Shown here piece after piece: positions 15,343 through 54,642 of a stretch of 64,000 bases of DNA. Position 1 is the stretch's first letter, and every line of letters starts with the position of its first letter. The notes beneath the pieces were generated by a model that did not search any database, was not told where the DNA came from, and saw only the letters and a program-made list of their open reading frames with translations. This DNA is from an uncultured Candidatus Actinomarinales bacterium (GTDB lineage: Bacteria > Actinomycetota > Acidimicrobiia > Actinomarinales > Actinomarinaceae). Position numbers and translations under genes: made by a program. The stretch spans positions 32,650-96,649 of the forward strand of contig CALSSQ010000001.1 in NCBI GenBank assembly GCA_943789065.1, in the 5' to 3' direction.

Positions 15343-15344
15343 GT

Positions 15345-16448: not shown

Positions 16449-16451
16449 CTA

Positions 16452-19422: not shown

Positions 19423-19425
19423 AAG

Positions 19426-21442: not shown

Positions 21443-21507
21443 GCCAGTCTTTCCTGTTTATTGTTAGTGTAAGTATTTGACCTATATATATGTAAAGAAG
21501 TAACACA

Positions 21508-22164: not shown

Positions 22165-22190
22165 GTATCATTATTAAAGGTGATTATTAA

Positions 22191-24310: not shown

Positions 24311-24312
24311 AT

Positions 24313-25836
24313 ATGAAAAAAGTCACACTATTAGTATTTCTACTTTTAGCTGCATGTTCTTCTGACTCCGAAAACATAGATACCTCTAGTGCAGAAATTG
24401 AGTCTGAAGAGGTTGCTGAATTAAAACTTGATGAGGATTCATCTAATGGAGTGAGGTTCCTTGAGTTTCCAGGCGATATAGACATTGACTATTTCTTTCC
24501 GTGTATAGACCAGAAAGGTTTAAATGCCATACCTGCTCCTCAACAAATTAATGACAAAATACGCATTGAATTTGATGAAGGTTATGACCAAGAATATATA
24601 GATTCATTTGAAGTAGCTTTTAATGAGTGTGCAGAGGAGCAAAGTGGTTCAAACGTAGCTACTGATGAATCAGATAACACAGAAACAAATGAAAAACAAA
24701 AATCAAAAAATATTGAGGTCAATCAAAATCTAGAATGCAAAAAAGCATTTTACTCAGACCGTCCAGAACCTGTAAAAGAGGATGGAGCATTTTTTTATTA
24801 CAAGTATTACTGGCAAGGACAAGAGAGAATTTGTTATAACTATTATGAAGCGGAAATAATTGATGATGATCTTGAAAACCAAGTAAAACTTTTATTTAAT
24901 GGGATTAGTGAGGAACTGGGATTGTATGTACCAATCAATTTAACATTGGTTGATCAAAACAGAGCGTCTTCAGAAACACTACGACAAATTAATATTGATG
25001 ATTGTAAAATATACGACTTTCGCAGAGCAGAGGACATTGAAGAATGTGCTGACATGCAAGATGCTTGGGGAAACAGGTTTGCAGCTGCTGGGGTTGGCTG
25101 GAGTTCAACAGCAAATGGTGGAAACGTTGCTCTCTTTGTAGACAATTGGGAAAACTATGGTTACCAAGATGCAATTAAAGTATTTGCTCATGAATATTTT
25201 CATGTCCACCAACACGGATTGTTATATTATTTTGAAGATGAAAAGCTCTTCGGCATTCCAAAAGCATGGTTGAACGATCCGGAGGGAACGATTTTTAAGG
25301 ACCAGCCAACAAAAACTTATAAAATGCCTGGATGGATAGAAGAAGGAGGAGCCGAGTTTGCTGGACCAATCCTGGCAACACAATATGATAATTCCATCGA
25401 TGCAAGAAAGTTATTTGAAGCTAGCTTAGATGAAGCAAAAGGAGTGATCTCCACTGCAGCAAGTAATGGTGATACAGTATCCTTAAGGGATTATGAATTT
25501 GCAGGATACCTTTATGAGTCTGAAGACAATCCTAATAATGGAATAGCTCGTGAGTTCGCCTATCAATATACTGGTGGACAGTGGGCACATCTTTATCTTT
25601 GGTCATTAGATGATGCTAATTATGAAAAACTTATGATTGAATATTATAGAAACTGGGCTGAAAATGAAAGCAAAAATCCAGGTGAAGGATGGAGAACAAC
25701 TTTCGAAGATCTATTCGACATGACAGTAGATGATTTTTACAGAGATTTTGATGCATTTATGTTAATGGACAAATCAGTACAGATGAGTATTCTTCCATCT
25801 AACGAAGAGATGCAAAATAGAAAAGTGTCCAAATAA
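24313..25836 (+). CDS. Lipoprotein with HExxH...EG gluzincin-like motif
   Basis: Canonical lipobox LAAC; FAHEYFHVHQ followed by WIEEGGAEF. Confidence 0.75.
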   Translation: MKKVTLLVFLLLAACSSDSENIDTSSAEIESEEVAELKLDEDSSNGVRFLEFPGDIDIDYFFPCIDQKGLNAIPAPQQINDKIRIEFDEGYDQEYIDSFEVAFNECAEEQSGSNVATDESDNTETNEKQKSKNIEVNQNLECKKAFYSDRPEPVKEDGAFFYYKYYWQGQERICYNYYEAEIIDDDLENQVKLLFNGISEELGLYVPINLTLVDQNRASSETLRQINIDDCKIYDFRRAEDIEECADMQDAWGNRFAAAGVGWSSTANGGNVALFVDNWENYGYQDAIKVFAHEYFHVHQHGLLYYFEDEKLFGIPKAWLNDPEGTIFKDQPTKTYKMPGWIEEGGAEFAGPILATQYDNSIDARKLFEASLDEAKGVISTAASNGDTVSLRDYEFAGYLYESEDNPNNGIAREFAYQYTGGQWAHLYLWSLDDANYEKLMIEYYRNWAENESKNPGEGWRTTFEDLFDMTVDDFYRDFDAFMLMDKSVQMSILPSNEEMQNRKVSK

Positions 25837-25839
25837 CAT

Positions 25840-26118
25840 ATGAAACTAGATGGAACAGATTTTCAAGTTTTAGTCTGGAAAGAACTTCTTAAAATTCCAT
25901 CAGGGAAAACTAAAACGTACAAAGAGATAGCAATAGCAATTGGCAGACCAAATAGTTCCAGAGCTGTAGCTAATGCTTGTGCTCAAAATCCTTATGCACC
26001 AGAAGTTCCATGTCATAGAGTTTTACGTTCAGATGGGTCCCTAGGTGGGTATAGTGCTGAAGGGGGCATTGAGCGTAAACGTGAATTGCTTGAAAGTGAA
26101 TCTAAAACAACTACCTAA
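25840..26118 (+). CDS. ogt: O6-methylguanine-DNA methyltransferase (single-domain)
   Basis: FQVLVW, SRAVANAC..NP, active-site PCHRV, LGGY. Confidence 0.88.
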   Translation: MKLDGTDFQVLVWKELLKIPSGKTKTYKEIAIAIGRPNSSRAVANACAQNPYAPEVPCHRVLRSDGSLGGYSAEGGIERKRELLESESKTTT

Positions 26119-26127
26119 AATTATCTT

Positions 26128-26568
26128 TTATTTATATCGCTCATAACACTCAATATAAACTTCCGGTGTAATTGTTTTTATAACTTTAGAAACAGTCTTT
26201 TCGGGAAATAACTCAACTTTTTTAAAACGTAAACATGATTTACCCATATCTAATTTTCCTACCTCATCTACTACATCTTTAGAAAAAGATTCATACAGCT
26301 CTTTGTCACAATAAACTCCATGTAAATAAAGTGCAAAATGATGCTTCTGTGCCGCTAGAGACATGACGCTCAAAGGTTTCTTATTATATGTTTTTGGATA
26401 GGTTGAAAGAGGTAGTTCATAATTAATCATTCCCCAGTCCATCGTTTCTTTTATTCCTTTTGGTAGACTCTCAAGAATTAATTTTCGGACATATCTGATC
26501 ACTTTAGCTTTTTCACTTTCGAGTTCATTTATGTATTGTTGAACTGTTGTCGCTGAAGAACTAACCAT
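26128..26568 (-). CDS. DUF1801/YdhG-like protein
   Basis: WGMINYE, LAAQKHHFALY, DMGKSCLRFK. Confidence 0.75.
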   Translation of the reverse strand: MVSSSATTVQQYINELESEKAKVIRYVRKLILESLPKGIKETMDWGMINYELPLSTYPKTYNKKPLSVMSLAAQKHHFALYLHGVYCDKELYESFSKDVVDEVGKLDMGKSCLRFKKVELFPEKTVSKVIKTITPEVYIECYERYK

Positions 26569-26734
26569 TTTTATTAACCAAACTAATAAAACCTAAGACA
26601 GAACTTGAAATGAATGAAAATAAAAAGAAATAATTTACAAAAATATTAGAGTTTTCAAATACATACATCAAAGGGTAAGAGGTGTATGCTGTTGCAAAAT
26701 AAATGAAGGGATTAAGTGTTAGTAATTTTTTCAT
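26561..26734 (-). CDS. Small membrane protein, 57 aa (not in the ORF track)
   Basis: MKKLLTLNPFIYFATAYTSYPLMYVFENSNIFVNYFFLFSFISSSVLGFISLVNKNG; ATGA overlap with the upstream ORF. Confidence 0.5.
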   Translation of the reverse strand: MKKLLTLNPFIYFATAYTSYPLMYVFENSNIFVNYFFLFSFISSSVLGFISLVNKNG

Positions 26735-26826
26735 TTTTTATATAATTGATAGATAATGATGGGAATAATAATAAACATTATCTCCCAAGTGTCCCATATA
26801 CGTTCTAATTCTTCAATAAAACTCAT
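26731..26826 (-). CDS. Small membrane protein, 31 aa (not in the ORF track)
   Basis: MSFIEELERIWDTWEIMFIIIPIIIYQLYKK; ATGA overlaps at both ends. Confidence 0.5.
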   Translation of the reverse strand: MSFIEELERIWDTWEIMFIIIPIIIYQLYKK

Positions 26827-27011
26827 TTTGTTCTATTCTGTAAAAATTTCTTCCCAAAAAGAATCCACAAGAAAAAGACAATCCAGAAAATTGGGAATGC
26901 AATAGATTCTTCAATCCCATTAAGGCTTAGTATCATTTCGACAAAAAAAAGCACCATAATCAGAACTGCTATGAAAGTTAGATACTTTATATTGATTGAC
27001 GCTCTCATCAC
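26823..27011 (-). CDS. Small two-helix membrane protein
   Basis: 62 aa with two hydrophobic segments; TACTAT -10-like box upstream. Confidence 0.55.
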   Translation of the reverse strand: MMRASINIKYLTFIAVLIMVLFFVEMILSLNGIEESIAFPIFWIVFFLWILFGKKFLQNRTK

Positions 27012-27029
27012 TCTTATAGTAATTGAAAA

Positions 27030-27914
27030 TTAAAGAGTAATACCAAATTGTTTTTTAACACTGATGCTAATTAAGTAAAAAGAGCTTGAACAAAGTATGA
27101 ACCCAAAAGTAGGTGGCATAAGGTTCCATAAATTTGTACCCCCTAAATAACTTCCATAAGTGATTGCATCGTAAATCATCATCCCCCAGTTAGGAGTCCA
27201 TCCAACTTGCCCAAAAAATGAAGCAAATCCATATGCAACTATTCCACTTGTTGTCACAGAAAGCATAAGTGCAACTGAGTAGGGAATAATTAAAGGAAGT
27301 ATATGTTTTAGTGCAATTTGAAGTTCGCTAGCACCAATAACTCTTGACGCATTTAAAAACTCTGAGTTTATAAGTTCTTTAACTCTTGTACTGATAACTA
27401 AGTAACAAACTCCCAGTCCCCCCAGTAATCCATAAATAAAACCAACCATTTCAGGGCTGAGCTTTTCTAAAAAATCACCTGTACCAAGAATAAGTAAAAC
27501 TATTGGAGGTGATATCAGAACTAAGCCTGATGAGAATTCTCTTAATAACAAATCAAATCGCTTGAAAAGAAATGGCACAAAAGTACCGACTATAAGACTT
27601 GATATGAGCCCGGTTATGAATGAGATAATAGAGAGCTTAATTAAGGGTTCTGAACCAGCTAAAAACATACTCAGAACATCTCTTCCAAGCGGATCTGTTC
27701 CTAGTAAGTGTGTTCCTGAAGGTGTAACGGGATGAGGAAATACAGACAAATCGAATCCAACAATAGGATCGTAAATATTCACCGGCCAAACAGTTTTAAG
27801 TAAGAGTATATGAGCAAGGGAACCTGTCATTAGTAGCAATAAAAATAGATAGCCTAATTTTCCATGGTAGGTTTTATAAGTACTTCGTAATATAAGTCTA
27901 AACATTACGAGCAC
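27030..27914 (-). CDS. ABC transporter permease, DppC/OppC-like
   Basis: HLLGTDPLGRDVLS, EAA-like EFLNASRVIGAS..HILP, PNWGMMI. Confidence 0.85.
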   Translation of the reverse strand: MLVMFRLILRSTYKTYHGKLGYLFLLLLMTGSLAHILLLKTVWPVNIYDPIVGFDLSVFPHPVTPSGTHLLGTDPLGRDVLSMFLAGSEPLIKLSIISFITGLISSLIVGTFVPFLFKRFDLLLREFSSGLVLISPPIVLLILGTGDFLEKLSPEMVGFIYGLLGGLGVCYLVISTRVKELINSEFLNASRVIGASELQIALKHILPLIIPYSVALMLSVTTSGIVAYGFASFFGQVGWTPNWGMMIYDAITYGSYLGGTNLWNLMPPTFGFILCSSSFYLISISVKKQFGITL

Positions 27915-29037
27915 CTCGTAATTGTGGATTGAACACTACTTGAGAGAAAGTAATCATTAGGCGTAATGTGGCTGTAAGAATTGCTAGTAAAAACAAAATA
28001 GCCATTGCTGCATTTGAATCCTGGCTCATAATTACTCTATATAACATTGAACCCATACCGCCCCATCCCGTAGTGGATTCTACAATTACTAAAGATGCGA
28101 TAGTGTAGGGAAGATTAATTGCAATCCTTGTAGCAAAAGGGAAAAAAGAATTCCTTATAATGTGATCTTTAAATATCTTATGATTTGAATAACCAATCGC
28201 TGCTGCAGTCATAATATGATCTTCTTTTGAAATATTTTGAACAATAATATTGTTGAATAAAATAAATTCTCCAATAAGCAAGATGGTGAGTATGCCGATT
28301 GTTATGAATGCATTTTTTGAATAATACAACATAGCAACAACTTCCTGACTCTCAAAAAAGAGAAAAATAATTATAAGCAAGGAGGCTGCAATCATGAATT
28401 TCTTCAAAGGTATATTTATTAATGCAATAACTTCAAAGAAACTAACAATAATCAATGAGCATGCGACTATAAAAATAAGAAAGCCCAAACCAAGTTTCAT
28501 TTCGCTAAAGAGCAGTAGTTCACTTGAGGTTCCTGTAATATCAAATCGGTCAAATAAGCTTCTGAATGTATTCTCAAGTCTTTCGCCGATAAGGAAATAA
28601 ATAATCGGAGGAAATAGACTTATTAATAAAATCCCGAAAGTGTCACTAAAGATTTTTTCCTTTCCCAGCCGTTTTACACTTGTTTTTAATGCTGGAATTC
28701 TTGATAGATAAATCGAGATAATGAAAGATGGGATTAGCACATGTAATGTAGGAAATACTGTATCAAGAACACTCTTACTTGAACGCTGCCTAAAACCCCC
28801 AGGAGTAATTTCACCGCTGAAGACACTTTGTATCCATCTGTAATATTGTTGAATTAATGGGTCGTTTGCGCCTAAGGTTTCACGCAGAGCATCGAGTTCC
28901 TCTTGAGACATCATTAACCTCAGTGGCGTCAAGAAATCACCAGGAATCAAAATATTAATTCCATAAAACATAATAAGTAAAAATATGAATATCGAAACAA
29001 CGGAGGTAAATAAATTACGAAGAAAAAATTTAAGCAT
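27898..29037 (-). CDS. ABC transporter permease, DppB/OppB-like
   Basis: ILIPGD, LGANDPLIQQYYRW, EDHIMTAAAIG..HIIRN, VESTTGWGGMG. Confidence 0.82.
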   Translation of the reverse strand: MLKFFLRNLFTSVVSIFIFLLIMFYGINILIPGDFLTPLRLMMSQEELDALRETLGANDPLIQQYYRWIQSVFSGEITPGGFRQRSSKSVLDTVFPTLHVLIPSFIISIYLSRIPALKTSVKRLGKEKIFSDTFGILLISLFPPIIYFLIGERLENTFRSLFDRFDITGTSSELLLFSEMKLGLGFLIFIVACSLIIVSFFEVIALINIPLKKFMIAASLLIIIFLFFESQEVVAMLYYSKNAFITIGILTILLIGEFILFNNIIVQNISKEDHIMTAAAIGYSNHKIFKDHIIRNSFFPFATRIAINLPYTIASLVIVESTTGWGGMGSMLYRVIMSQDSNAAMAILFLLAILTATLRLMITFSQVVFNPQLRGARNV

Positions 29038-29104
29038 TTTATTAGTTTAGTTCAGAAGTAAATTTCATTAGAGAACTCCCAGTTTTATAACTTAAGTACC
29101 ATAA

Positions 29105-30502
29105 GTGGACATGGATTTTTTTGATATAGTAATTATTGGTTTATCAGCTGGAACCTTATTTTTCCAACGTTTTTCTTCGCTGACGCAGAGAATACTCCTC
29201 AGCACTTTTTTTATAACAATTATCACTCATATTATTTTTGTTGGCGTGAGGTGGCAGTACTACTTAATTTATGCGCTTTTTATTACTAAATCAATAATTA
29301 CAATATTTGAATATAGAAGTACAAAGAAATTTATAAGAGCACTAATCTCCATCAAAACTATTTCATTCGTGATTATTTCAGCTGGGTTACTTTATATCTT
29401 TCCTGTTCCTACTTTTGGGACAGGCGGCGATGCACTTTACTCAGTTGGGTATAGTGAAGAGCTCTTAATAATTGATGATAGAAATAATCCAACTGAGTTT
29501 GTAGAACTTAGCAATCTCAAAGAAAATTCAAAAAGAGAATTGTTAGTAGACGTTTATTATCCAAGTGATGAAGAGATTTCTTCAAATCAGATATTTAGAA
29601 GTAAAGAAGGTAATTGGGGAACTTACATTGTTAGATATTTAAATAGGACATGGGGGCTTAGTCTTCCAGAGTTTATACTCCAACATTTAAAACTTTCACA
29701 GTTTGAAGTCCAACAAAATCTTATACCTGTTGAGAATAAAAAGTTCCCAGTTCTTATTTACTCCCATGGGTGGGCAGGTGAAAAAATATTTGCTTCAGAT
29801 CAACTAATACACTTAGCTTCCAAGGGTTATGTTATCTTCTCTATTGACCATACAGGTTTAGCAATGTTTACAAATTTACCATCTGGAATAATTTTTAATA
29901 CAGGCTCCACCGAAAATTCATCCAACATTCATAGTGTTATGTATGAGATGAAGAATGATATTGAAGACACTATGAATCATTTTATAAACTTAAGCAGTGT
30001 GGAGTTACCCATCACAAATATTGTTAGAGCAACAGCAGATTTTACTAACGTTTCTACAATGGCGCACTCTACAGGAGCAGGGGCTGTAGTTGAGTTCTGT
30101 GCTGTGAACACTTGTCAAAATATGATCCTACAAGATCCTTTTTTAACGCCTTTTGTCGATGCAGGAAAAGAGATTCAGCTGAGAAATAAAACAGATGTTA
30201 TATACAGCGAGGACTGGTTCAATGGATATACAGATTCTGAAGAGTTAACTGAGATTGAGCTTTATAGAACTCTGTTATCTAAACAAGATGTTGAAATTCA
30301 TGGGTATTACTTAAAAGATTCTAAGCATTATGACTTTGTTGCCTTTGGTTCAATCAGTTCTTTAACAAAATATACTTTTCTCAAAGGTGCTATAAATTAT
30401 GAAGATTCGTTAAATGTTAATAATTATTTTAATAGTTCAGCCTTAAAGGGTGAGATTCCTAATGAGGAGTATTCACCATACTTAGTATCTATTGACCAAT
30501 AA
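29105..30502 (+). CDS. Membrane-anchored alpha/beta hydrolase (PAF-acetylhydrolase-like)
   Basis: N-terminal TM helices, RELLVDVYYP, PVLIYSHG, LASKGY, nucleophile AHSTG, KHYDF. Confidence 0.75.
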   Translation: MDMDFFDIVIIGLSAGTLFFQRFSSLTQRILLSTFFITIITHIIFVGVRWQYYLIYALFITKSIITIFEYRSTKKFIRALISIKTISFVIISAGLLYIFPVPTFGTGGDALYSVGYSEELLIIDDRNNPTEFVELSNLKENSKRELLVDVYYPSDEEISSNQIFRSKEGNWGTYIVRYLNRTWGLSLPEFILQHLKLSQFEVQQNLIPVENKKFPVLIYSHGWAGEKIFASDQLIHLASKGYVIFSIDHTGLAMFTNLPSGIIFNTGSTENSSNIHSVMYEMKNDIEDTMNHFINLSSVELPITNIVRATADFTNVSTMAHSTGAGAVVEFCAVNTCQNMILQDPFLTPFVDAGKEIQLRNKTDVIYSEDWFNGYTDSEELTEIELYRTLLSKQDVEIHGYYLKDSKHYDFVAFGSISSLTKYTFLKGAINYEDSLNVNNYFNSSALKGEIPNEEYSPYLVSIDQ

Positions 30503-30511
30503 GAGCTTTAA

Positions 30512-31006
30512 GTGAAATACAAACAGTCTATTCGTGTTGTTAAGCAAATTAATACCACAGAGGAAGAGCTATGGGATGTCATAAGTCAACCAGGTCACTT
30601 AGAGTTAACACATCCTTTTTCAAGAAGCCATTCGGTGATATCGTGGCCTGGAGTTGGGTCAAAGGATGTTTTAATATATCTAAGTGGTCTACGGTATGAG
30701 AGATATTTTACTGATTGGAATGAAGGTAAGGGCTATACATTGCAAATTGGAGGAAGAGAGGGGAAAAAATCAAAGGTCATTTGGGAGATATCTTCAGATG
30801 AAAATAATATATTCCTTTCGATAACGATTTACCCCCATTTCTTAGCTAATACAGCAAGATTTTTTAGCTTTCTACCCTATAAGCTATTGATCAGACCAAA
30901 GTTAACAACTTATTTACATTCAGTACTGGGAGGAATAAATTACTACATTATTGAAAAAGAATCAGTACCAAAAAACCACTTTGGCACGCACAAATGGTTT
31001 TCTTAA
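30512..31006 (+). CDS. SRPBCC/START-like protein
   Basis: EELWDVISQPGHL pattern typical of an SRPBCC N-terminus. Confidence 0.55.
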   Translation: MKYKQSIRVVKQINTTEEELWDVISQPGHLELTHPFSRSHSVISWPGVGSKDVLIYLSGLRYERYFTDWNEGKGYTLQIGGREGKKSKVIWEISSDENNIFLSITIYPHFLANTARFFSFLPYKLLIRPKLTTYLHSVLGGINYYIIEKESVPKNHFGTHKWFS

Positions 31007-31013
31007 AGAAGGC

Positions 31014-31094
31014 TTACAATGAAAGAGATAGAAGCCCAAAGATAAGTGGTATCAGTAATAGAAATCCTAGTAACAATATTCTTTTTGCATTCAT
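31014..31094 (-). CDS. Putative 26-aa single-helix microprotein
   Basis: MNAKRILLLGFLLLIPLIFGLLSLSL; TACACT box 7 nt upstream of the ATG. Confidence 0.35.
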   Translation of the reverse strand: MNAKRILLLGFLLLIPLIFGLLSLSL

Positions 31095-31118
31095 AATTTA
31101 AAGTGTATCATTGAATCT

Positions 31119-31274
31119 ATGAATGATAAAAAGTTCTTCATAATCTCTTTAGTTTTTTTAGTGACAGTTGTTGTAACTGCGTTCGCTGATCTTGATTATA
31201 TCTCTATGGGCTTATCCTTTGTAGCAATGGCTTTTTGCTTTTGGTATATCAAAACAAGATCTCTTCAAGAGTAA
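31119..31274 (+). CDS. Small two-helix membrane protein, 51 aa (not in the ORF track)
   Basis: MNDKKFFIISLVFLVTVVVTAFADLDYISMGLSFVAMAFCFWYIKTRSLQE; TATCAT 7 nt upstream; stop 1 nt before the next gene. Confidence 0.55.
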   Translation: MNDKKFFIISLVFLVTVVVTAFADLDYISMGLSFVAMAFCFWYIKTRSLQE

Positions 31275-31275
31275 A

Positions 31276-32211
31276 GTGAAATACTTTCGTCCCCTTGTAC
31301 CCTATTTAGTTGGATTAGCTTTACTACTTACAATCCCTGTGTTTAGAGATGTTGGAATATATAACACAATTGGTCAAGCAGTATTGTTTATTTTTGTGGT
31401 GTGCATACCAATCTCCAGAACAGGCCGAATGAGTTATGTTGATATCGCCTGGCCATGGGGACTAGTTCTTGTGGGAGTCATTAGTTTTATATTTAGTGAT
31501 GGCTATTGGCTTAGGTCATTATTTATTAGTGGAATGGTAATTCTTGTTGGCCTGAGAATGGGGTTGGGTGCAGTCAAGATGTGGAGATCAGGGTATTTAG
31601 ACAAAGAATTACCACGTTATGAATATCAACATATTCGTTGGAAAAAGAAAGGAAAAGATAATACGCAACTTGCCCTTCAGGTAGATGCGATTTCTCAGGG
31701 TCTAGCTAATGCGTCTTTTCTAGCGTTGCCCATTTTTATCACCGCAACAAATGCACAACAGTCATTTGGGGCAGTAGAAATACTAGGTATCTGCATTTGG
31801 GGAGTAGCTTTACTTATGGAGTCAATAGCTGACTTTCAGAAACTAGCTTTTCTCAAAAGAATGAAAAAAGAAGAGAAGCGTAATCAAGTCTGCAATGTCG
31901 GCTTATGGAAATATTCAAGACATCCAAACTATTTTGCAGAATGGATGGTATGGAATGGCCTTATTATTACCGCTCTTCCATCATGGCTTGCTCTAAAAGA
32001 TATACAATCAGGATTTTTTAATGATCAAATCGAACAGATTCTTTGGTTACTGTTAGGTGCAGGTCTAATCTTTGTCTCAAGAATGATGTATCTTACCCTC
32101 GTCTATGCAACTGGTGCTATTCCTGCAGAACATTATTCTGCCCAAAAAAGACCTGAATACAAAGAGTATCAAAAGACAACAAATAGATTTTTTCCAGGAC
32201 CCCCTAAGTAA
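31276..32211 (+). CDS. DUF1295 (steroid 5-alpha-reductase-like) membrane protein
   Basis: SYVDIAW, ESIADFQK, GLWKYSRHPNYFAEW, YQKTTNRFFP. Confidence 0.85.
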   Translation: MKYFRPLVPYLVGLALLLTIPVFRDVGIYNTIGQAVLFIFVVCIPISRTGRMSYVDIAWPWGLVLVGVISFIFSDGYWLRSLFISGMVILVGLRMGLGAVKMWRSGYLDKELPRYEYQHIRWKKKGKDNTQLALQVDAISQGLANASFLALPIFITATNAQQSFGAVEILGICIWGVALLMESIADFQKLAFLKRMKKEEKRNQVCNVGLWKYSRHPNYFAEWMVWNGLIITALPSWLALKDIQSGFFNDQIEQILWLLLGAGLIFVSRMMYLTLVYATGAIPAEHYSAQKRPEYKEYQKTTNRFFPGPPK

Positions 32212-32387
32212 AAAAGAGTTGGTGTAGATACCACAAGTGTATGCACAGGGTAAGCAGTACCTACATTTAACCAACATCTTTTGTGACTGGTGAGCATTGA
32301 AAGTACTAAATTAATTTATGTCCATTCAACGCTCTAAGTTAAGTATTGCATTGAGCTAAGACAGAAATTTTCAGCGGAAAGCAGATC

Positions 32388-33332
32388 TTATAGTAGCTCT
32401 ACCGCCTGCTTGATAACGTCTATTGTTTCATTACGCTTATCTTCTTGCAGTGATAGTAACTGTAGATAAACAGCCTCAATTCCAACTTCTTGCCACATAG
32501 ATAAAGTTGTGGCAACCTCATCTGGTGTACCGTAGAGATAGCTTTTCTCTTTCCAGGTATTAGCTATTTCTTCTTCAGTTTGGGCTAGTGCTTTAGCCGC
32601 AGCAGTTACTGATTCTCCAACACGTTCTTGTGTCAAACCTACTACTGGAGGACAGGCTGTAGTAATTTCTAGTTTCGAGACATCTCTTCCGTCTTCAGCT
32701 GCAACTTCTTTAAATAAAGAGATGCTATTAACTAATGTCTCTTTAGGTCCAGCGTATATATTGAACTCTTCCGAATACTTTCCAGCAAGGGTAGGGGTTT
32801 TCACCTTTCCTCCACCACCAATAATGATAGGAATGTCTTGTAAGGTTGCTGGCTCAACAGGAAACTGTTCAAGCTGATAGTACTCACCTTGAAACCCCTT
32901 ATCATTTCCTGAAAGTGCTTCTCTGATGTAAATGAGTGACTCTTCAAGCATTTCAAATCGAGTTTTTAAATCTGGGAATGGTATGCCGTAGAGATCATGT
33001 TCAATTTCTAGCCACCCAGTTCCAACACCTAAACGAAATCTTCCTTTTGCCATATCATTTATTGTTGAGGCCATTTTGACCAGCACGCTTGGATGTCTAA
33101 AGGTTATTGGCGAGACAAGTATTGAGTACACCATTTTTTCTGTATCTCTAACTAGTCCTGCGCTCGCAGTTAACAAATCTAAAGCTGGAGTGGCGTCATT
33201 TTTATCATGTCGTTGTTTCCCAACTATATAGTGGTCCGGAAGGCCTATTCTCTCAATTTCATTTTGTTCTGACCATTTAGATAGATTCAAGAGCGTGTCG
33301 TAACTTCCACGAGCCTGAAGAAATATTTTCAT
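32388..33332 (-). CDS. LLM-class (luciferase-like, possibly F420-dependent) oxidoreductase
   Basis: PDHY, LVSPITFRHP, GRFRLGVGTGW, PIIIGGGG. Confidence 0.85.
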   Translation of the reverse strand: MKIFLQARGSYDTLLNLSKWSEQNEIERIGLPDHYIVGKQRHDKNDATPALDLLTASAGLVRDTEKMVYSILVSPITFRHPSVLVKMASTINDMAKGRFRLGVGTGWLEIEHDLYGIPFPDLKTRFEMLEESLIYIREALSGNDKGFQGEYYQLEQFPVEPATLQDIPIIIGGGGKVKTPTLAGKYSEEFNIYAGPKETLVNSISLFKEVAAEDGRDVSKLEITTACPPVVGLTQERVGESVTAAAKALAQTEEEIANTWKEKSYLYGTPDEVATTLSMWQEVGIEAVYLQLLSLQEDKRNETIDVIKQAVELL

Positions 33333-33443
33333 AACGTTAGTTTAATCTAAATATTTTTTCAATCTTGTCATTGGGTTTTTCTTGATAAGCCATTTCTAAG
33401 AAATGTTCCACTAGATATTTACCCACTTGGTACCTAGGTTAAC

Positions 33444-34064
33444 TTACTTATCTACTTCAATCACAATTGTTTGTGGATTAGCAGTTTCATATGATCTGAA
33501 GATACTTCCAGGAACTATTCCTACTGATAATTCTAGATTGGCTTCAAATTCTCCATACGCACGTCCATATAAAATGGGTCCATCGCTTTCAACTATACGT
33601 TGACCACTGAATGTAGATGCAGTTCTTTCATTGTCTAGTAACCATCCTCCATCACTGTTACGTACAATGCTGTATCCAGGAAAACTTATATACAACCATT
33701 CCTCAACATAATCTGGAATAAACGGACCCATTTCTGGATCAATAGTACATGTTTCACGGTCACATCTTGCAATATATGGTGAATTAGGGATTAAATCACT
33801 ATCTTGAGTTATATCTAAATCAATAATGAAAGAATCAAAAGTATCGCCTTTTACAATGCGGATACCATTTATGTAGGGTGTTGTTCCTTTATATGCTCCA
33901 TCATTATCAATGAAGTCTGAAACAGTTGTTGTAGTTGTTGTTTCTAAAAGAGTAGTCGTTGTTGTTTCTAAAAGAGTAGTTGTTGTTGTTTCTTGAAAAG
34001 TTGCAGTAGTTTCTGATCCACCGCACATAATTAGGATTAAAAGAATACTTATATATTTCCTCAC
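33444..34064 (-). CDS. Lipoprotein with Thr-rich stalk and small beta-rich domain
   Basis: GTG start MRKYISILLILIMCGGS, ETTTTTLL repeats; signal module shared with 35504..36436. Confidence 0.7.
   Translation of the reverse strand: MRKYISILLILIMCGGSETTATFQETTTTTLLETTTTTLLETTTTTTVSDFIDNDGAYKGTTPYINGIRIVKGDTFDSFIIDLDITQDSDLIPNSPYIARCDRETCTIDPEMGPFIPDYVEEWLYISFPGYSIVRNSDGGWLLDNERTASTFSGQRIVESDGPILYGRAYGEFEANLELSVGIVPGSIFRSYETANPQTIVIEVDK
33925..33995. repeat. 24-bp imperfect tandem repeat coding ETTTTTLL
   Basis: gttgtttctaaaagagtagt occurs twice with a third degenerate copy. Confidence 0.75.
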
Positions 34065-34248
34065 AGAACAATCTTACAAAGTAAAAAGCCGAACAACATA
34101 ATTTTTAATAATTTGAAAGAACTACTAAGTCATTAAACCAAATATGGGCGTCAATTCTATGGACACTAGAGCAAATGTTTTCGCTCAAGAACCTTTGATT
34201 GCATTGAGCAACAGCTCTTGGTGCTGGCAATGCTCTCGCTATCCAGCA

Positions 34249-34288
34249 ATTTGAACCTGTGACTTCTTCCTTGTAAGGGAAGCGCTCA
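34249..34288 (-). repeat. tRNA-Val(TAC) 3' fragment, copy 3 (att-like scar)
   Basis: 40 bp identical to 37673..37712; minus strand reads GAGCGCTTCCCTTACAAGGAAGAAGTCACAGGTTCAAAT (anticodon arm with TAC, T-loop GTTCAAAT). Confidence 0.85.
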
Positions 34289-34334
34289 TAATACATTCTT
34301 ATTAATATAAGATTTGTTATGAAAAGGAGACTAC

Positions 34335-34709
34335 ATGGAGTTACATAAAAACAGTGGAGAACTTAGAGTCGTTATAGATGTGAGCTATACGTCTGCAGAG
34401 GAGTTTTTAGATTTTATTAAAAATGAACAATGTCAATTTATTGATAGCTTAGGTGTAGCAGGTCTTAAAAAATTTGAATGGTACGTTGATGAAGATACTA
34501 ACACAGCGACATTAGTTGAGGTATTTGATAATGCCGAGAGCTTTGGAGAACTTGCTACAAAAGCATTAGGTACGCCAGTCAATCTGAAATTTCGTGAGTT
34601 AGCCAAGTTTGAAAATATGACCATCTTAGGTGACGTATCAGAAGAAATGAAAGAAAACTTAGCTGCTATGGAGCCAAAAATAAAAACTTTTAAAGCAGGT
34701 TTAAACTAA
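34335..34709 (+). CDS. ABM/dimeric alpha-beta barrel-like protein
   Basis: SD AAGGAG; FEWYVDE...TLVEVFDNAE pattern typical of ABM-like proteins. Confidence 0.55.
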   Translation: MELHKNSGELRVVIDVSYTSAEEFLDFIKNEQCQFIDSLGVAGLKKFEWYVDEDTNTATLVEVFDNAESFGELATKALGTPVNLKFRELAKFENMTILGDVSEEMKENLAAMEPKIKTFKAGLN

Positions 34710-34720
34710 GTTATATTTAG

Positions 34721-35119
34721 ATGAACAAAAAACCAAAACTCTCTCTTTCTACAGTAATTAGAAGATTTTTCTCTATATTCCTTCTCTTCTCCATTATCTC
34801 TGGAATCATTAATGATATTTTATCTGGAACCTTTTCTGGTGACAGTATTGGTGGAGCAGTAGGGGGTTTAGTGATTGTATTCTTCCTCTCAGGTATTGGA
34901 CGAAGATCAAAAGCACCTACTAGTGATGATGACCCCAAAGAGACTACGGAGGAAGATAAAGATATTTACGATGAAGAAACTTTACAGGAGTTTGAAAAAT
35001 TTGATTCTGAAGAAGTTGTTGTGAAAGAAAGTGAAATAACTAACAAGTCTTATAACCCTATTAAAGACAAGGACAGCTTTTTAGTAAGAATTTTTAGAGG
35101 GAGAGTTGACCGTATTTAA
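34721..35119 (+). CDS. Hypothetical membrane protein (two TM helices plus acidic tail)
   Basis: 132-aa ORF with two hydrophobic segments. Confidence 0.6.
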   Translation: MNKKPKLSLSTVIRRFFSIFLLFSIISGIINDILSGTFSGDSIGGAVGGLVIVFFLSGIGRRSKAPTSDDDPKETTEEDKDIYDEETLQEFEKFDSEEVVVKESEITNKSYNPIKDKDSFLVRIFRGRVDRI

Positions 35120-35400
35120 TCTTGATAGATAATATTTCCGTTTACGAGAATCTTAAATTTAAGTTTAAAAAAGAATGATACATATACTTCAATAGATTTA
35201 ATGTCTTCAGATACATCATATTTAGAAAGAAGTACTTTTTTGCCGGTAGCAATTTTATCTTTGTTTTGATCTAAGTGTTCACCATCTAGATACAGGTCAG
35301 CAGCACCTTGGAGTTTCCAATTCCACCAATTGGATACTTTGATTTCTCTTCCATTAAAATCAACTGTGCGTTCTTCTAGATTTGGTGTTGCTGTTTTCAT
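35116..35400 (-). CDS. Hypothetical small beta-rich protein
   Basis: 94-aa ORF with ATG start and a TAATAT box upstream. Confidence 0.6.
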   Translation of the reverse strand: MKTATPNLEERTVDFNGREIKVSNWWNWKLQGAADLYLDGEHLDQNKDKIATGKKVLLSKYDVSEDIKSIEVYVSFFFKLKFKILVNGNIIYQD

Positions 35401-35503
35401 CAGATAAATATTATCACAAGCTCAAGTAAACGAGTATGTTTTTCTACATTTTGGGTGTTAATTGGCTGATAAGAAAAAGATTGATGAGAACTTTAAGAAA
35501 CTA

Positions 35504-36436
35504 TTATGGGGTATATTCATAAATCTTTCTAGATAGAGCATCGTTTGGTGGTGAAAGTATTTTTTCAACAAAGTCAGTATATAATTGATGAGATAACGGA
35601 AGGGTATTTTTTAAATCCTCTTTACTAGATATTCTAAATTCTTCATGTGGAATATTCCATAGATAGCCATAATTCCACTCAGTTACAATCACCCAAAAAA
35701 AGAATTCTTGAGTGACAACTCTATAATGCTGTTCTTCACCAATAGAAGCCACATCGGGATAACTCTCATCATTGAATGAACCATTATCAACAGCTTCATG
35801 ATACGCTTTTCTAAGAGCGGAGTTAGGATTTGTATAATCCCAATCAGGAGACATCAACCTGAAGCCAATATTGGTAATAGTATGTAAAGAGTGTTCAAGA
35901 ATTGTACCTAATTGTCTATCAGTAGACTCGCCATCATCCCAAATATAATCTGTTTGATTATCTTCATACGTACGATTTTTTTGGTCAGGACAACACGAAA
36001 CTAATGGAGAGTCAGTATCCAAATCATAAAATTCTGGACCTAAATATCCAACTCTTTGATACACATATTCATTTCTTAACACTGAGAAAAATTCTTCTTG
36101 AAGTGCTGTGTCAATATTTTCATTATCTAAGAACATAAGACTTATTATTGAAGCTACTTTTAATAAAAAGGTATCACTAGCTTCCTGTAATTTAACTTCC
36201 CGTAATTTAAATACTCTTAATGGTCCTACATCTACATATGTGGTGAAGTCTGTATAGGAGTTGTCTTGAACAATTGTGAATTTGTTGATTATATCTTGTG
36301 CTTTCTTTATATTTTCGTCTAAAAGTGTAGTCGATGTACTCGATGATGTACTCGATGATGTATCTTGAACAGTTATGGCACTATCGGAACCACCACACAT
36401 AACAAGAATTAAAAGAATAATCGTATATTTCCTCAC
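35504..36436 (-). CDS. Lipoprotein with EHxxH zincin-like domain (paralog of 4834..6060)
   Basis: GTG start MRKYTIILLILVMCGGS, Ser/Thr stalk, TILEHSLHTIT, VTQEFFFW. Confidence 0.75.
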   Translation of the reverse strand: MRKYTIILLILVMCGGSDSAITVQDTSSSTSSSTSTTLLDENIKKAQDIINKFTIVQDNSYTDFTTYVDVGPLRVFKLREVKLQEASDTFLLKVASIISLMFLDNENIDTALQEEFFSVLRNEYVYQRVGYLGPEFYDLDTDSPLVSCCPDQKNRTYEDNQTDYIWDDGESTDRQLGTILEHSLHTITNIGFRLMSPDWDYTNPNSALRKAYHEAVDNGSFNDESYPDVASIGEEQHYRVVTQEFFFWVIVTEWNYGYLWNIPHEEFRISSKEDLKNTLPLSHQLYTDFVEKILSPPNDALSRKIYEYTP

Positions 36437-36513
36437 AGATGAAGTATGGCACTAAATATGTGGGATGTGTCGGAGGAAATGATATTTTCGCTCAATAATT
36501 CAGTGAACCCCCA

Positions 36514-36551
36514 TGGGCGCTACAGGATTTAAACCTGTTAGTTCTTGCTTG
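36514..36551 (-). repeat. tRNA-Val 3' fragment, copy 2 (degenerate, keeps the acceptor end AGCGCCCA)
   Basis: tgggcgctacaggatttaaacctgttagttcttgcttg differs from copy 1 at four positions over the T-arm and variable region. Confidence 0.75.
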
Positions 36552-36569
36552 AATCATTAGGATTAGAAT

Positions 36570-37655
36570 ATGAAAACGAAATTCTTTGTACTTTTACTTA
36601 TCTTTGTATCTTGTGGACCAACGGAATCAGAAATACAAGAACAAATTGAGCAAGCAGTAGAGCAAGCTACTTCTACTACTACAACAACTAAATATGTAGT
36701 TCAGAATCCTCTTCTTGAGGAAGAATCTATTGCACCTCTAGTTCCTTTTGAAGGGAGATATTCTTCATTTGAATGTCCTGACGCACCTCCACCAAAAGAA
36801 GAATTATTCCTAGTTAATCTCTCATCCATACCAGATGAGAATCTAATTCAATGTTACAACTATGCATTATCCAAAACTATACCTACAGAGATTGAAACAC
36901 TTCTCATAATTTATCCTGTTGGGGATTTTGTTGGTGAACTTCAAAATAATGATACTCCTTACAGAGGAGCTGGTTTTGAACCCGTCCTTAATGAGAATGA
37001 AGTTTCAACTATATATGAAAGAGTTTTAGAATTTTATGGTCCTGAGTGTAATGTAGAACAACAAGCTTATGGGATTGCTCGTTATGCTGAGATAGGTGGA
37101 GGGCAGCAAGTCCAGGCTGCATTATGCCCGGAACTATCCAACAAAAAAACTGTCATAATAACCATAGATCCTGAGAGAAAGAAAATTCCTATAGAATTAC
37201 AGTTTGTATTTTTTCATGAAATTTTTCATGCATTACAAATTCATCTACCCTATTTAGATGACTGTCTTCTTTCAGATTCTCCAGAAGATAGCTTTGCTTT
37301 AGTCGAAGGAGGTGCAAATTATTTTGCCTGGGTGACCACAGCAACTTTGCAAAACATACCAAAAGAACAATTAATGGGAGAATGGTTAACGTTTATAAAA
37401 CATATTATTGCTGTTGGAGAGAGTACAACAGAATTTAAAGATCCCGCTATCGCTGAAAAAGCAGCGATAGGTCTATATTTATTAGTTCAAAGAGGCGACC
37501 TTGATGAAGAGCTTTTATTAAACGCAACTATTTTTAGTACTTGTAATGGAGACTACTTTAGTTCTGAAATGATGACCATCGCAAGACAGTATTGGTATGA
37601 TGCTGAAGTTGTGAATGGAAAAGTATTATTTTCTGACCAAGCACTTAGCAAATAA
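36570..37655 (+). CDS. Lipoprotein with HExxH...EG gluzincin-like motif
   Basis: Lipobox FVSC, Thr-rich linker, FFHEIFHALQ followed by LVEGGANY. Confidence 0.75.
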   Translation: MKTKFFVLLLIFVSCGPTESEIQEQIEQAVEQATSTTTTTKYVVQNPLLEEESIAPLVPFEGRYSSFECPDAPPPKEELFLVNLSSIPDENLIQCYNYALSKTIPTEIETLLIIYPVGDFVGELQNNDTPYRGAGFEPVLNENEVSTIYERVLEFYGPECNVEQQAYGIARYAEIGGGQQVQAALCPELSNKKTVIITIDPERKKIPIELQFVFFHEIFHALQIHLPYLDDCLLSDSPEDSFALVEGGANYFAWVTTATLQNIPKEQLMGEWLTFIKHIIAVGESTTEFKDPAIAEKAAIGLYLLVQRGDLDEELLLNATIFSTCNGDYFSSEMMTIARQYWYDAEVVNGKVLFSDQALSK

Positions 37656-37660
37656 TTTAT

Positions 37661-37712
37661 GTCGGCTACAGGATTTGAACCTGTGACTTCTTCCTTGTAA
37701 GGGAAGCGCTCA
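37661..37712 (-). repeat. tRNA-Val(TAC) 3' fragment, copy 1 (att-like scar)
   Basis: Minus strand GAGCGCTTCCCTTACAAGGAAGAAGTCACAGGTTCAAATCCTGTAGCCGAC; lacks the 5' acceptor strand and D-loop. Confidence 0.85.
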
Positions 37713-38192
37713 GTTTACAATATCCTCAGGTGGTTCATCGTACCCCCATTCTTTCAGCAGCCTTTATGCTTCTCGGTCGAATTGTCTGATCAGTATCAGA
37801 ATATTTGATATTAAACTTTATAGGACCTTCTTGTGCTTGCCTTTGTTTTTTTAATTCCTCACGAGCATTCTCAATTATCATTCCCAAGATTAAGGTTTTG
37901 TATGACCTAGATATTTATTAAGTTCTTTTAGTTCCATAGTGTCAATTTCTCTTCCAATACGTTCCTAGTCCTCTGGCATAGTTATCCATCATTTTTTGAT
38001 AAATCGGGTAGTGAAGCTCTTGTGTTGAGACTTAATTTTCTCTCTTACATGGGGCCTTTGTAGAGTTCGACATACAGCGCTCGGGGAGAGACCAAGTTGT
38101 TTTGCAATACTTCTTTGACTCTCACCTTCAACGGTAAGTCTTACAATCTCTAATTCTTTCTTATTTAACGGCGTATTTTCACTTTTGGTCAT
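37710..38192 (-). CDS. HTH protein of possible mobile-element origin (frameshifted)
   Basis: MTKSENTPLNKKELEIVRLTVEGESQRSIAKQLGLSPSAVCRTLQ HTH; reading continues through frameshifts to a TGA overlapping tRNA fragment copy 1. Confidence 0.5.
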
Positions 38193-38311
38193 TTTTAGTA
38201 TTCTGACAGATTCAGATATATAGGTTTTTTTCCAAGTATAATTTTCACGCAACTGATAAAAGTATCTTAGAGACAATGCTGTACTTTCCTATATATATGT
38301 AGTTACAAAAG

Positions 38312-38384
38312 CGGCCTCGGCAAGATTCGAACTTGCGACACCAGGTTTAGGAAACCTGTGCTCTATCCCCTGAGCTACGAGGCC
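38312..38384 (-). tRNA. tRNA-Arg(CCT)
   Basis: GGCCTCG acceptor stem, TAGCTCAG D-arm, CAGGT-TTCCTAA-ACCTG anticodon arm, GTTCGAATC T-loop; no encoded CCA. Confidence 0.95.
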
Positions 38385-38431: not shown

Positions 38432-39422
38432 ATGTTAGCAGTCGACGTTAAGAATATTAAGAAAACTTTTACGAGCAAACAAGACACGGTTGAGGCAGTA
38501 AAAGATGTAAGCTTTCAGGTTGAGCAAGGAGAAATCTTTGGGCTACTTGGCCCCAATGGAGCTGGAAAATCTACAACTATCTTAATGCTTACCACATTAC
38601 TTAGCATTACAGATGGCAAGGCCTCAATATTAGGTATTGATGTTGAGACACAAGATAAACAAGTTCGAGAAAAAATAGGTGTCGCGTTACAAGACACAGG
38701 AATAGATCAATCTCTTAACCGGTCGAGAGTTATTTTTTACTACTTGTCGTTTATGGGGATACTACAAAGCTGATTCTGAAAAAGAACAAAAGAACTCTTA
38801 GAACTCGTCGGACTTACCGAAGCAGCTGGATAGAGAGAGTCAAAACTTATTCAGGAGGTATGAAAAGAAGATTAGATCTAGGTCTTAGTCTCGTACACTC
38901 ACCAGAGATTTTGTTTTTAGATGAACCAACAACTGGTTTAGACCCGGGTTCTAGAAGAGTGTTATGGGATGAGATAAAAAGACTTCGAGACACTGGTGTC
39001 ACAGTCATTTTGACCACACAATACCTTGAAGAGGCTGATGAATTAGCAGATCAGAATAGCAATTATTGATGAAGGATTAGTTGTTGCAGAGGGTACTTCT
39101 GATGAGCTCAAAGCCAGTATTGGTGGGAGATGTCATAACTTTTCCTTTCGACTACAGAGGAGATATTACAAAAGCGCAACAAATATCTCACTGACTCTGT
39201 ACAAGAAAAAGATGGAATTAAGAATCACTGTTGCAGATGGCGCTTCAAAAATTCCAGGATACATTAAAAGTTAACTCACTCAGAGGTATTGAAGTCAGTT
39301 CAGTATCTGCAAGTAAACCAACACTAGATGATGTATTTCTTGAAGTAACTGGATATAGACTTGAGGGTTCAGAAGAACCTGTTGAAGAGACACCAGCACC
39401 AACTCGAGGAAGAGGTAGATAA
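38432..39422 (+). CDS. DrrA-like ABC-2 exporter ATPase (multiple frameshifts)
   Basis: [40 protein letters not shown] spread across fragments. Confidence 0.8.
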
Positions 39423-40223
39423 TGGAGATCAAATAGATCATTTGCTGTACTCAGCTTCAGATTTTAACAAAGAGATTAGTACTTACGAGTTATGCGTAGA
39501 CCATTGGCAGAACTTCCTAATATTTTTATCTCTGCATTCTTTCTTTTTGTATATGACGGTGCATTAGGAGGAGTTTTTGGTGGCTCAGCACAGGGGACAC
39601 CTCTTGATTTTGCTAATGGTAACTTTGTGAACTTCATTCTTCCAGTATCTATAGTCTCAGCATCTGTCAGTGGTGGTGCCTCTGGTATATACCTTGTTGA
39701 GGATATTGAATCTGGTGTATTTAAACGATATCAAAGTATGCCAATTTCAAAATGGGCAATTATTTTGGCTCCTATGTTAGTTGGTGCATTAAGAGTCTTG
39801 CTTCAAGCTGGGTTAATTATGGTTATAGGAAAATTTATTGGTGCAGATCCTGCTGTTGGACGCAGTTGGTTCTTTGTTGTTCTTATCCATTGCCTTTTTA
39901 TGGGGGATGGGATTTGCTGGATACTCTGTTGCAGCAGGTGTTCGTTCTGGATCTTCACAGGGTGCACAAGCAGCATCTTTTCTATTTTTCCCAGCATTAT
40001 TTTTAGCACCAACATTTGTTCCACGAGAAGCATTAAGAGGATGGCTTGCAACAGCTTCCGCATACAATCCAACAACATATGTTATTGAAGTCAATGAGAG
40101 CGATTATGGTTGATGGTTGGGTACAGATGTTATTGCTAAAGGCTATATTGCAGCAGGATCTTTTGCCTTTTAACTCTAACTTTTGCAGTTATTTCTGCTG
40201 GAAAAGCTACAGAAAAAGCATAA
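39422..40223 (+). CDS. ABC-2 permease (multiple frameshifts)
   Basis: NFILP, EDIESGVFKRYQSMP, FFPALFLAPTFVP, YNPTTY across fragments; boundaries approximate. Confidence 0.75.
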
Positions 40224-54599: not shown

Positions 54600-54642
54600 A
54601 AACTAATTTTTTTAAAAATCATTTCACACTTATACTTGATTA

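Follow-up and report, generated by a model that had tools for sequence, protein, structure and literature searches.

The window considered here is a stretch of 64,000 nucleotides (nt) from an uncultured Candidatus Actinomarinales bacterium, taken from an assembly called G000 below (1.06 Mb in 3 contigs, 90% complete). The window is G000:C1:32650-96649, and positions given without a contig are those of the window. Within it, behind a gene for tRNA-Arg(CCT), positions 33444-38384 hold a row of short gene cassettes punctuated by pieces of a different tRNA gene, that for tRNA-Val(TAC). These pieces are here called Val cores. The array is likely the fast-turnover, tRNA-proximal end of a 14-kb additive island, its Val cores being attachment sites that small, tRNA-Val(TAC)-specific integrative elements have left behind, and its cassettes being gained, lost and re-ordered within those cores. 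Between relatives, the order of the cassettes varies, and the breakpoints fall inside the Val cores.

Few free-living bacteria of the sea are as small or as abundant as Actinomarina. It has been described as nearly free of mobile elements, which raises the question of how it keeps up a flexible gene pool. The locus gives a concrete and testable route by which this might be done. The relatives compared below are genomes within the genus Candidatus Actinomarina (64 in the sample, given as G-numbers), joined by the metagenome contigs L121, L122 and L123.

tRNA-Val cores behind a tRNA-Arg gene

ARAGORN finds two tRNA genes in the window, tRNA-Arg(CCT) and a tRNA-Leu(TAA), and no others. The whole 1.06-Mb assembly has 36, with Val(GAC) among them; tRNA-Val(TAC) was not found there. 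Positions within the tRNA are counted, for all fragments, on the intact tRNA-Val(TAC) of the relative G022.

Three Val cores lie 3' of tRNA-Arg(CCT), all of them on the minus strand (Table 1). The analysis confirmed what the original prediction had said of them, that they are derived from tRNA-Val and co-oriented, and that copies 1 and 3 have 40 identical nt in common. They had also been called 3' fragments. This holds for their origin; the true acceptor 3' end, however, is kept only in copy 2, where the DNA downstream is a decayed version of the flank native to the tRNA gene. Loose ends of metagenome contigs at 36514 read the native tRNA-Val flank. Copy 1 departs from the tRNA after position 69, with CGACA replacing the acceptor end. 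The 52 nt first assigned to it (37661-37712) hold 47 nt of tRNA, together with 1 nt upstream and 4 non-tRNA nt downstream in excess. Two exact matches, of 47 and 39 nt, and one copy at 89% uphold the view that the pieces are scars of tRNA-directed integration. The copies had been thought to differ in age, and copy 2, which is decayed, is indeed older.

Chance does not deliver such matches. A 30-nt core occurs twice in the window against 0.00 times expected (100 shuffles), and Rfam scores copy 1 as a partial tRNA at 33 bits, the gathering score being 29. Direct repeats in one orientation that match a part of a tRNA gene exactly are one of the features of a tandem array of attachment (att) sites, and the array has them. 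A second such feature, an intact cognate tRNA at the head of the array, is replaced here by tRNA-Arg(CCT).

The original prediction had noted that no intact tRNA-Val was to be seen. In 10 relatives, the equivalent of position 1 of G000:C1 sits 1.75-4.6 kb from an intact tRNA-Val(TAC). Because the gene lies near the equivalent of the contig start in these relatives, what is missing reflects an assembly gap, not biology. From this gene order, the tRNA-Val(TAC) of G000 is expected in the gap that precedes contig C1, at a distance of ~70 kb from the array.

Breakpoints inside the cores

The original prediction had proposed to test whether gene content changes between relatives exactly at the fragments, which is another feature of tandem att arrays. 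Such changes are found when G000 is compared with G003, G057, G059 and G075.

The clearest case is a cassette that consists of a Val core, a gene for a predicted gluzincin peptidase, and copy 2. It is 98.2% identical in G003 and 99.9% identical in G057. The gluzincin unit measures 1.15 kb. On its right, the DNA joined to it at tRNA position 69 is the same in G000, G003 and G057. On its left stands a helix-turn-helix (HTH) pseudogene in G000 and a set of three small genes in G003; the left flank in G057 is unrelated, and tRNA identity begins there only at position 32. Beyond copy 2, the three genomes differ again.

The other cassettes give a similar picture. In G075, the HTH gene is followed by the full tRNA 3' end, with the same left flank and another right flank. 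A gene for a protein of 124 amino acids (aa), one of the three small genes, is followed by the full 3' end and the native flank in G022, G006 and G014; in G000 and G059 a core that breaks off at position 61 comes after it, with different DNA thereafter in each. The three-gene cassette as a whole (94.3% identical to G003 and 95.5% to G059) has a Val core at both of its ends in G059. There too, from the same core position, 1.37 kb of other genes replaces a gene for a 206-aa lipoprotein. Where conservation of the core was compared with that of its surroundings, another gene stood between the core and the 124-aa gene in 5 of the 11 aligned loci.

Cassettes are also more alike than the chromosomes that carry them. 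Against G003, the cassettes are 94-98% identical and core DNA 82-85%; against G059, the values are 95.5% and 79-81%. For a cassette in the tRNA-Phe island of G000, described below, they are 95-96% and 73-83% (against G010 and G006).

Core DNA is itself a sharp mosaic in one of these relatives. Contig G003:C31 is 99% identical to G000 over window positions 54588-56200 and 73% identical over 52113-53383. This suggests recent homologous exchange between species.

The G000 genotype is present in 19 runs. Metagenome contigs from 4 marine runs break at the cores of the array, with loose ends that lead into other contexts. Copy 2 is bridged by one contig with 0 differences, and there are contigs that span 34249-36551. 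Two joints are short-sided and give a hint of another context only; these run from 36436 to 34248 (one run, side 31) and from 35100 to 37665 (three runs, sides 34-39).

An integrase element at tRNA-Val

The cassettes had been described as having no integrase of their own, and so they are found to be. A search for tyrosine recombinases (PF00589) covered 61 genomes of the genus and gave matches in 58, nearly all of them to one or two Xer-like genes of ~290-300 aa. G000 has only two matches, both to Xer-like genes of ~290 aa that stand 280-430 kb from the array on C1. No serine recombinase (PF00239) was found in G000.

A tandem att array would have an integrase in or beside it. G000 has none there, and among the genomes searched only G071 has such a gene at tRNA-Val(TAC). 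Here, a phage-type tyrosine integrase of 366 aa (PF00589, 5e-19; phrog_1, 1.5e-50) adjoins the intact tRNA gene. After it come, in order, a protein of 262 aa, an HTH_3 regulator, a protein of 103 aa, a DUF3631 protein that is possibly a replication protein, and a terminase small subunit (phrog_4102, 6e-17). The element ends in a 44-nt core, and two more cores stand further on; the unit measures 5.9 kb. Judged from its genes, its layout is that of a phage satellite resembling the phage-inducible chromosomal islands (PICIs). These are marked by an integrase, a regulator, a replication gene, terS, no virion structural genes, and a length of <15 kb, features that the element shares in G071, L121 and L122 and that the G000 array does not have.

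L121 is an integrated relative of the G071 element. L122 (6.2 kb) is circularly permuted, so that a distal arm, a core (positions 32-75) and an integrase-side arm follow one another. Its core has a compensatory variant in the T-stem, and its integrase-side arm contains short direct repeats with CCCCC. This order is the arrangement of attP, the attachment site on the element, that is expected of an excised circle or of a tandem. In L123, a fragment of a related integrase is linked to a core from tRNA-Phe. The cores of the array equal most of the attP core of the integrase element.

Phages with the 40-bp core had been suggested as something to look for. Exact scans of IMG/VR with the 47-nt and the 30-nt core gave 0 matches each, so no core-carrying phage was found in that collection. 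The G071 integrase had one distant match there (27%), and no close relative.

Val cores across the genus

The 30-nt core is present in 127 copies in 56 of the 64 genus genomes, and 103 of these copies are exact. Two or more copies occur in 38 genomes. A control with the reversed pattern gave 0 in the same genomes. Val cores are found in at least four islands.

A genome-wide search for further copies, as the original prediction advised, delivered a fourth in G000. It lies outside the window, in a tRNA-Phe island (G000:C1:899543-899584), and is inverted with respect to the tRNA-Phe fragment there. This tRNA-Phe(GAA) island (G000:C1:898221-900873) consists of a 43-nt tRNA-Phe fragment, the inverted Val core, and a 1-kb cassette that matches DNA of an island called "locus A" in G010 and G006 at the 95-96% identity given above. 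In G009, an orphan Val core (positions 23-62) sits at yet another chromosomal site (L021; G009:C1, ~394674-394722), between homologs of G000:C1:680128 and 678471; G000 is without a core at that place.

At ~6844-11882 of locus L040 (G073:C1:219000-238999), two full copies of tRNA-Ile(GAT) enclose a phage-type integrase that has a tRNA-Leu(TAA) next to it. The arrangement resembles a tRNA-Ile-inserted element that carries its own tRNA. In G001:C54 (L045), two tRNA-Ile fragments surround an integrase remnant.

The island behind tRNA-Arg(CCT)

The stretch first described as the array is only the tRNA-proximal, fast-changing third of a larger, 14-kb island that is specific to one clade. The homolog of window positions 14002-24317 stands directly beside tRNA-Arg in G022, G010, G008 and G009. 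Junction sequences from G022, G006, G007 and G004 show ~22 bp between tRNA-Arg and the stop codon of the neighbouring core gene. Because the flanking core gene adjoins tRNA-Arg in these island-free relatives, the limits of the island can be set (Table 1).

Most of the relatives examined lack the island at this site (G022, G010, G008, G009, G006, G007 and G004), and it occurs in one Candidatus Actinomarina clade. It is present in G003, G057, G059 and G075; in a tree of the conserved flank (13 rows), these four and G000 form a single clade with support of 100/100, to which the island-free G006 is sister. G013, G001 and G010 have other, unrelated insertions at the tRNA-Arg site, which is therefore a hotspot.

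The distal two thirds of the island are older and change more slowly. They encode a 507-aa lipoprotein, a DUF1801 protein, two ABC permeases, a PAF-AH-like hydrolase, SRPBCC and DUF1295 proteins, and a luciferase-like oxidoreductase. Identity to G059 is here 78.8%, close to core divergence. In more distant relatives, homologs of this part occupy locus A, which is ~2 kb from tRNA-Val(GAC).

The tRNA-Arg(CCT) gene itself carries a compensatory change of a T-stem pair, from G-C to A-T, in 5/5 island-bearing genomes; the change is absent in seven others, and G001 has a further T-stem variant. One might suppose that an Arg-specific integration replaced the 3' half of the tRNA gene and so brought the island to this place. 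This is possible but not supported. Descent within one clade explains the T-stem variant equally well.

Two further observations concern the same site. On the far side of tRNA-Arg (38432-40113), genes for an ABC ATPase (~327 aa) and a permease (~266 aa) are broken into short frames in G000; their homologs are intact in G003, G006, G022, G075 and G057, and metagenome contigs over this stretch differ from G000 by many indels, at low depth. In G003, the tRNA-Arg island (L011 4720-15200, G003:C31) is a defence island, with type I restriction-modification genes (HsdM, HsdS, HsdR), a 1218-aa helicase-nuclease (AAA_11/12 + MTES_1575) and a Schlafen/AlbA_2 protein.

How the cassettes might move

The process might run as follows. 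Small integrative elements specific for tRNA-Val(TAC) would leave their attachment-site cores behind, and cores of the type carried by the G071 element would be seeded into other islands. The stretch from one core to the next (0.6-2.3 kb, mostly with genes for surface lipoproteins or peptidases) would then act as a cassette, to be gained, lost or re-ordered through recombination inside the cores. The integrase of a transient element, supplied in trans, might recombine orphan cores and so excise or insert units of a core plus a gene. Such units could move among the tRNA-Val, tRNA-Phe, tRNA-Arg and locus A islands.

The original prediction had named both a trans-acting integrase and homologous recombination as the means of exchange. 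The first has become plausible through G071, the metagenome contigs and the attP form, and the chance that such an integrase, acting in trans on orphan cores, catalyses the recombination seems slightly better than even. RecA-type homologous recombination across the 40-70-bp cores and their shared flanks would instead be a serious possibility of smaller weight. It explains the shuffling almost as well, and the data do not separate the two.

Were an integrase at work, the crossover would probably fall within that part of the core which corresponds to the anticodon loop. The identity block of the attP extends from the anticodon loop to the 3' end, and in the scheme by which Williams classified tRNA integration sites in 2002 such a block reportedly goes with a crossover in the anticodon loop. 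If this applies here, then copies 1 and 3 would remain usable, unlike copy 2.

A bolder and quite tentative suggestion goes further. The orphan Val cores spread over several islands in most Actinomarina species might form a shared network of landing pads, where integrase-less cassettes of 1-2 kb, each a core plus a gene, are moved in trans by rare, transient, satellite-like integrases. If so, the network would be, in effect, an integron whose integrase is a visitor, and a 1-Mb genome with almost no resident mobile elements could trade surface genes across species.

Several observations weigh against the reading of the cores as attachment sites of Val-specific elements, within which cassettes turn over. 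Neither the window nor the 90%-complete G000 assembly contains a phage-type integrase, and more than Xer-like genes are found in only about 5 of the 61 genomes searched, with G071 as the sole case at tRNA-Val. On the right, the cores end at varying places (positions 58, 61, 62, 65, 69 and 75). Since the identity block of the satellite attP runs from 32 to 75, several junctions are not simple products of attP. The HTH protein of G000 is unrelated to the terminase small subunit of G071. The tRNA at the head is one for Arg and not for Val, and repeats derived from tRNA-Arg are found neither in the window nor in the islands that G059, G013 and G001 have at tRNA-Arg. Circular cassette junctions, which the original prediction had proposed to look for, did not appear as core-to-core joints in the contigs of the 4 runs, and the sole joint that "goes back" is not of that kind. 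Finally, the mosaic in G003 means that high identity between cassettes can stem from ordinary homologous gene flow.

Much of this can be turned into a different account, which we consider possible and on the whole unlikely. The cores would be dead remnants, RecA-dependent recombination over cores, tRNA genes and shared cassettes would do all of the shuffling, and no integrase would act at the locus today. The lack of an integrase in G000, core ends unlike the attP block, and the 99% and 73% tracts in nearby core DNA of G003 all speak for it, as does the disagreement between the flank tree and the core-region identities of G057. A 92-nt head common to two of the lipoprotein genes could also serve as homology. 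However, at least 47 of at least 71 core copies outside tRNA genes are exact over 30 nt, while their flanks diverge by 15-30%; exact cores amid diverged flanks fit continual renewal by site-specific exchange better than passive decay. Further, on either side of the 99.9%-identical cassette the breakpoint lies within a 40-nt core, there is an active-looking element that has an attP form, and integration of tycheposons, the integrase elements of Prochlorococcus islands, beside partial tRNA copies is documented in the parts of a preprint consulted here (bioRxiv 10.1101/2020.12.28.424599).

A dedicated, integron-like system, in which cassettes of core plus gene are selected as self-standing units and served by a recombinase of their own that has escaped recognition, is improbable. 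Units of core, gene and core do recur across islands and species, and their cargo is enriched in surface lipoproteins. Yet no recombinase of the intI type, nor any other extra one, is found in G000, the repeats are simply pieces of a tRNA and not attC sites, the genes stand on both strands with no common promoter layout, and a conventional integrase element has these cores as its attP core.

It is more improbable still that the order of units in G000 is a chimera, assembled through 40-nt repeats from co-occurring strains. Short-read contigs do break at every core, many contigs of relatives end in one, and none of the independent contigs listed bridges the exact G000 joins over copy 1 or copy 3, which counts against the preferred reading as well. 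Nonetheless, the half-junction of HTH gene and core is seen independently in G057 and G075, the succession of core, gluzincin gene and copy 2 in G003 and G057, and that of small genes and core in G003 and G059. The contigs from other runs that bridge copy 2 and span 34249-36551 argue in the same direction, and G000 is in 3 contigs, of which one of 1.02 Mb runs through the array.

What is at stake is readily stated. If integrases do act on orphan cores, then the tycheposon type of island building extends to marine Actinobacteria, and a hotspot can be carried by cores to new places on the chromosome. If they do not, the locus is a well-documented but ordinary additive island.

Genes of the array

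Table 1. Features of the tRNA-Arg(CCT) island in the window
Feature	Position	Strand	Remarks
Flexible genomic island	~24311-38310		14 kb, 3' of tRNA-Arg(CCT)
Older, slower-changing island part	24313-33332		gene list; 78.8% identity to G059
206-aa lipoprotein	33444-34064	-	open reading frame; Thr-rich tandem repeats
Val core copy 3	34249-34287	-	tRNA-Val(TAC) positions 23-61, 39/39 nt identical, truncated in T-loop
Three small genes: 124 aa (+), 132-aa membrane protein (+), 94 aa (-)	34335-35400	mixed	open reading frame layout
310-aa lipoprotein	35504-36436	-	lipobox LVMCGG, Ser/Thr linker, EHSLH motif
Val core copy 2, decayed	36514-36551	-	positions 37-74, 89% identical, decayed native flank after
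361-aa lipoprotein, predicted gluzincin (HExxH...E) catalytic domain	36570-37655	+	motif and predicted structure
Val core copy 1	37665-37711	-	positions 23-69, 47/47 nt identical
160-aa HTH protein, pseudogene	37710-38192	-	weakly small-terminase-like
tRNA-Arg(CCT), island head	38311-38384	-	T-stem GCAAG/CTTGC, against GCAGG/CCTGC in island-free relatives

The layout of reading frames and cargo is as the original prediction described it, save that the HTH gene is a pseudogene. Compared with the intact genes of G057 and G075, it has 4 single-base indels, and reading through it meets 8 stops. The intact 160-aa homologs lie at the same place, right after tRNA-Arg, with a stop codon that overlaps the start of the core. 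Metagenome contigs contain both the indel-bearing and the intact-type alleles. The protein has matches to HTH_23 and GerE, together with weak matches to PHROG families of terminase small subunits and transposases. A remnant of the G071 element was considered as its source; no similarity was found between the G071 small terminase and the HTH region of G000. Because the two are unrelated, the pseudogene does not come from that particular element. It has the appearance of a final gene from a different Val-specific element that is otherwise lost.

The 361-aa protein has a lipobox and carries a predicted gluzincin catalytic domain. Across 19 sequences, H216, E217 and H220, which form the HExxH motif, never vary, and at least 90% retain E246. 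The structural model (pLDDT 79.9) has its best structural matches in gluzincin catalytic domains, namely 4fgm_A of the M1 family (Z 11.2) and thermolysin (Z 8.2, VIA-align), with M61 and leukotriene A4 hydrolase also among the matches. Foldseek against the PDB gave no match for the model at E <= 0.001.

Apart from the HTH gene, none of the cassette proteins has a significant Pfam family, even with E up to 1. Atlas offers leads only: Peptidase_M61 on 21% of one neighbouring cluster, and families of the zinc-peptidase type with scores of at most 0.86 for the 310-aa protein. The genes for the 206-aa and the 310-aa lipoproteins have a 92-nt head in common (33976-34067 and 36348-36439, 77% identical), which comprises the 5' leader and the signal peptide; the starts of these two cassettes are therefore paralogous. 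In the 206-aa gene, 24-nt tandem repeats (33928-34011) make up the Thr-rich linker.

Comparison with known systems

Cassettes bounded by tRNA fragments in Actinomarinales are already published, as is the tycheposon model. New here are the non-cognate cores behind tRNA-Arg, the occurrence of cores in several islands, and, for Actinomarina, a PICI-like element that has an attP form. The parts consulted of Lopez-Perez et al. 2020 (PMC7771536) report direct repeats of tRNA fragments at the ends of inserted cassettes, transfer of cassettes between genera, transporter-rich islands, and a prophage in tRNA-Val. They describe cognate repeats at five tRNAs of the island fGI1 and further loci at tRNA-Ile and tRNA-Glu near ABC transporters. 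Almost no mobile elements are reported, and the word "integrase" is absent from the main text. The organism group and the tRNA-fragment-bounded cassettes are the same in both cases. The present array differs in having tRNA-Val(TAC) cores behind a non-cognate tRNA-Arg(CCT) (a locus that may be drawn in the supplementary figures of that paper), in the recurrence of these cores in at least four islands, and in the existence of an integrase-bearing, satellite-like element with an attP form. A 2026 preprint, "Actinomarina, resolved", describes tRNA-bounded hypervariable regions, and the words "integrase" and "satellite" do not occur in its text. Complete Actinomarina genomes are reported in bioRxiv 10.64898/2026.04.03.716425. 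In the literature searched, there is no description of such an integrase element in Actinomarina; supplementary files may show more.

Tycheposons, as the available part of Hackl et al. (bioRxiv 10.1101/2020.12.28.424599) presents them, include rare integrase elements at tRNAs, some of them PICI-like with terS. Partial tRNAs lie between tandem elements and are scattered through Prochlorococcus islands. The likeness to the array extends to a streamlined marine host, to island DNA that is mostly free of integrases, and to the greatest heterogeneity being next to the tRNA. Prochlorococcus, however, belongs to a different phylum, and in the part consulted its partial tRNAs match the island's own tRNA, which they do not do here. 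Being flanked by a full and a partial target tRNA is typical of a tycheposon; the G071 element is so flanked, whereas the G000 array has partial copies only. With its integrase and DUF3631 gene by tRNA-Val, the G071 element would be a candidate for the tycheposon family by layout; the G000 array has neither of these genes.

The PICIs and the marine VEIMEs (integrative mobile elements that are encapsidated in virions; PMC9618062, where the main text does not mention Actinomarina) resemble the element of G071, L121 and L122 in its integrase, HTH regulator, putative replication protein and small terminase, in its lack of capsid and tail genes, and in its attachment to a tRNA with a circular or tandem form. 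The element differs in being only ~6 kb long. The G000 array has just a broken HTH gene.

The array had been called integron-like. As in integrons, short cassettes lie between recombination sites, are re-ordered, and are shared between lineages. The name can stand as an analogy only, as every defining feature tested fails. There is no intI beside an attI and a Pc promoter, G000 having no extra tyrosine recombinase, and no attC between co-oriented, promoterless cassettes (as judged from the tRNA identity of the repeats). The sites are tRNA pieces, and the genes lie in mixed orientation.

A further comparison is with the additive islands of Methylophilaceae (PMC10872708, as far as consulted), which carry recurring 3' repeats of tRNA-Lys. 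Here too, a streamlined planktonic lineage has repeated tRNA 3' ends ahead of variable cassettes that are mostly of unknown function. The repeats of Methylophilaceae, however, are cognate 20-nt ends of the adjacent tRNA, whereas those of the Actinomarina array come from a tRNA-Val gene and stand behind a tRNA-Arg.

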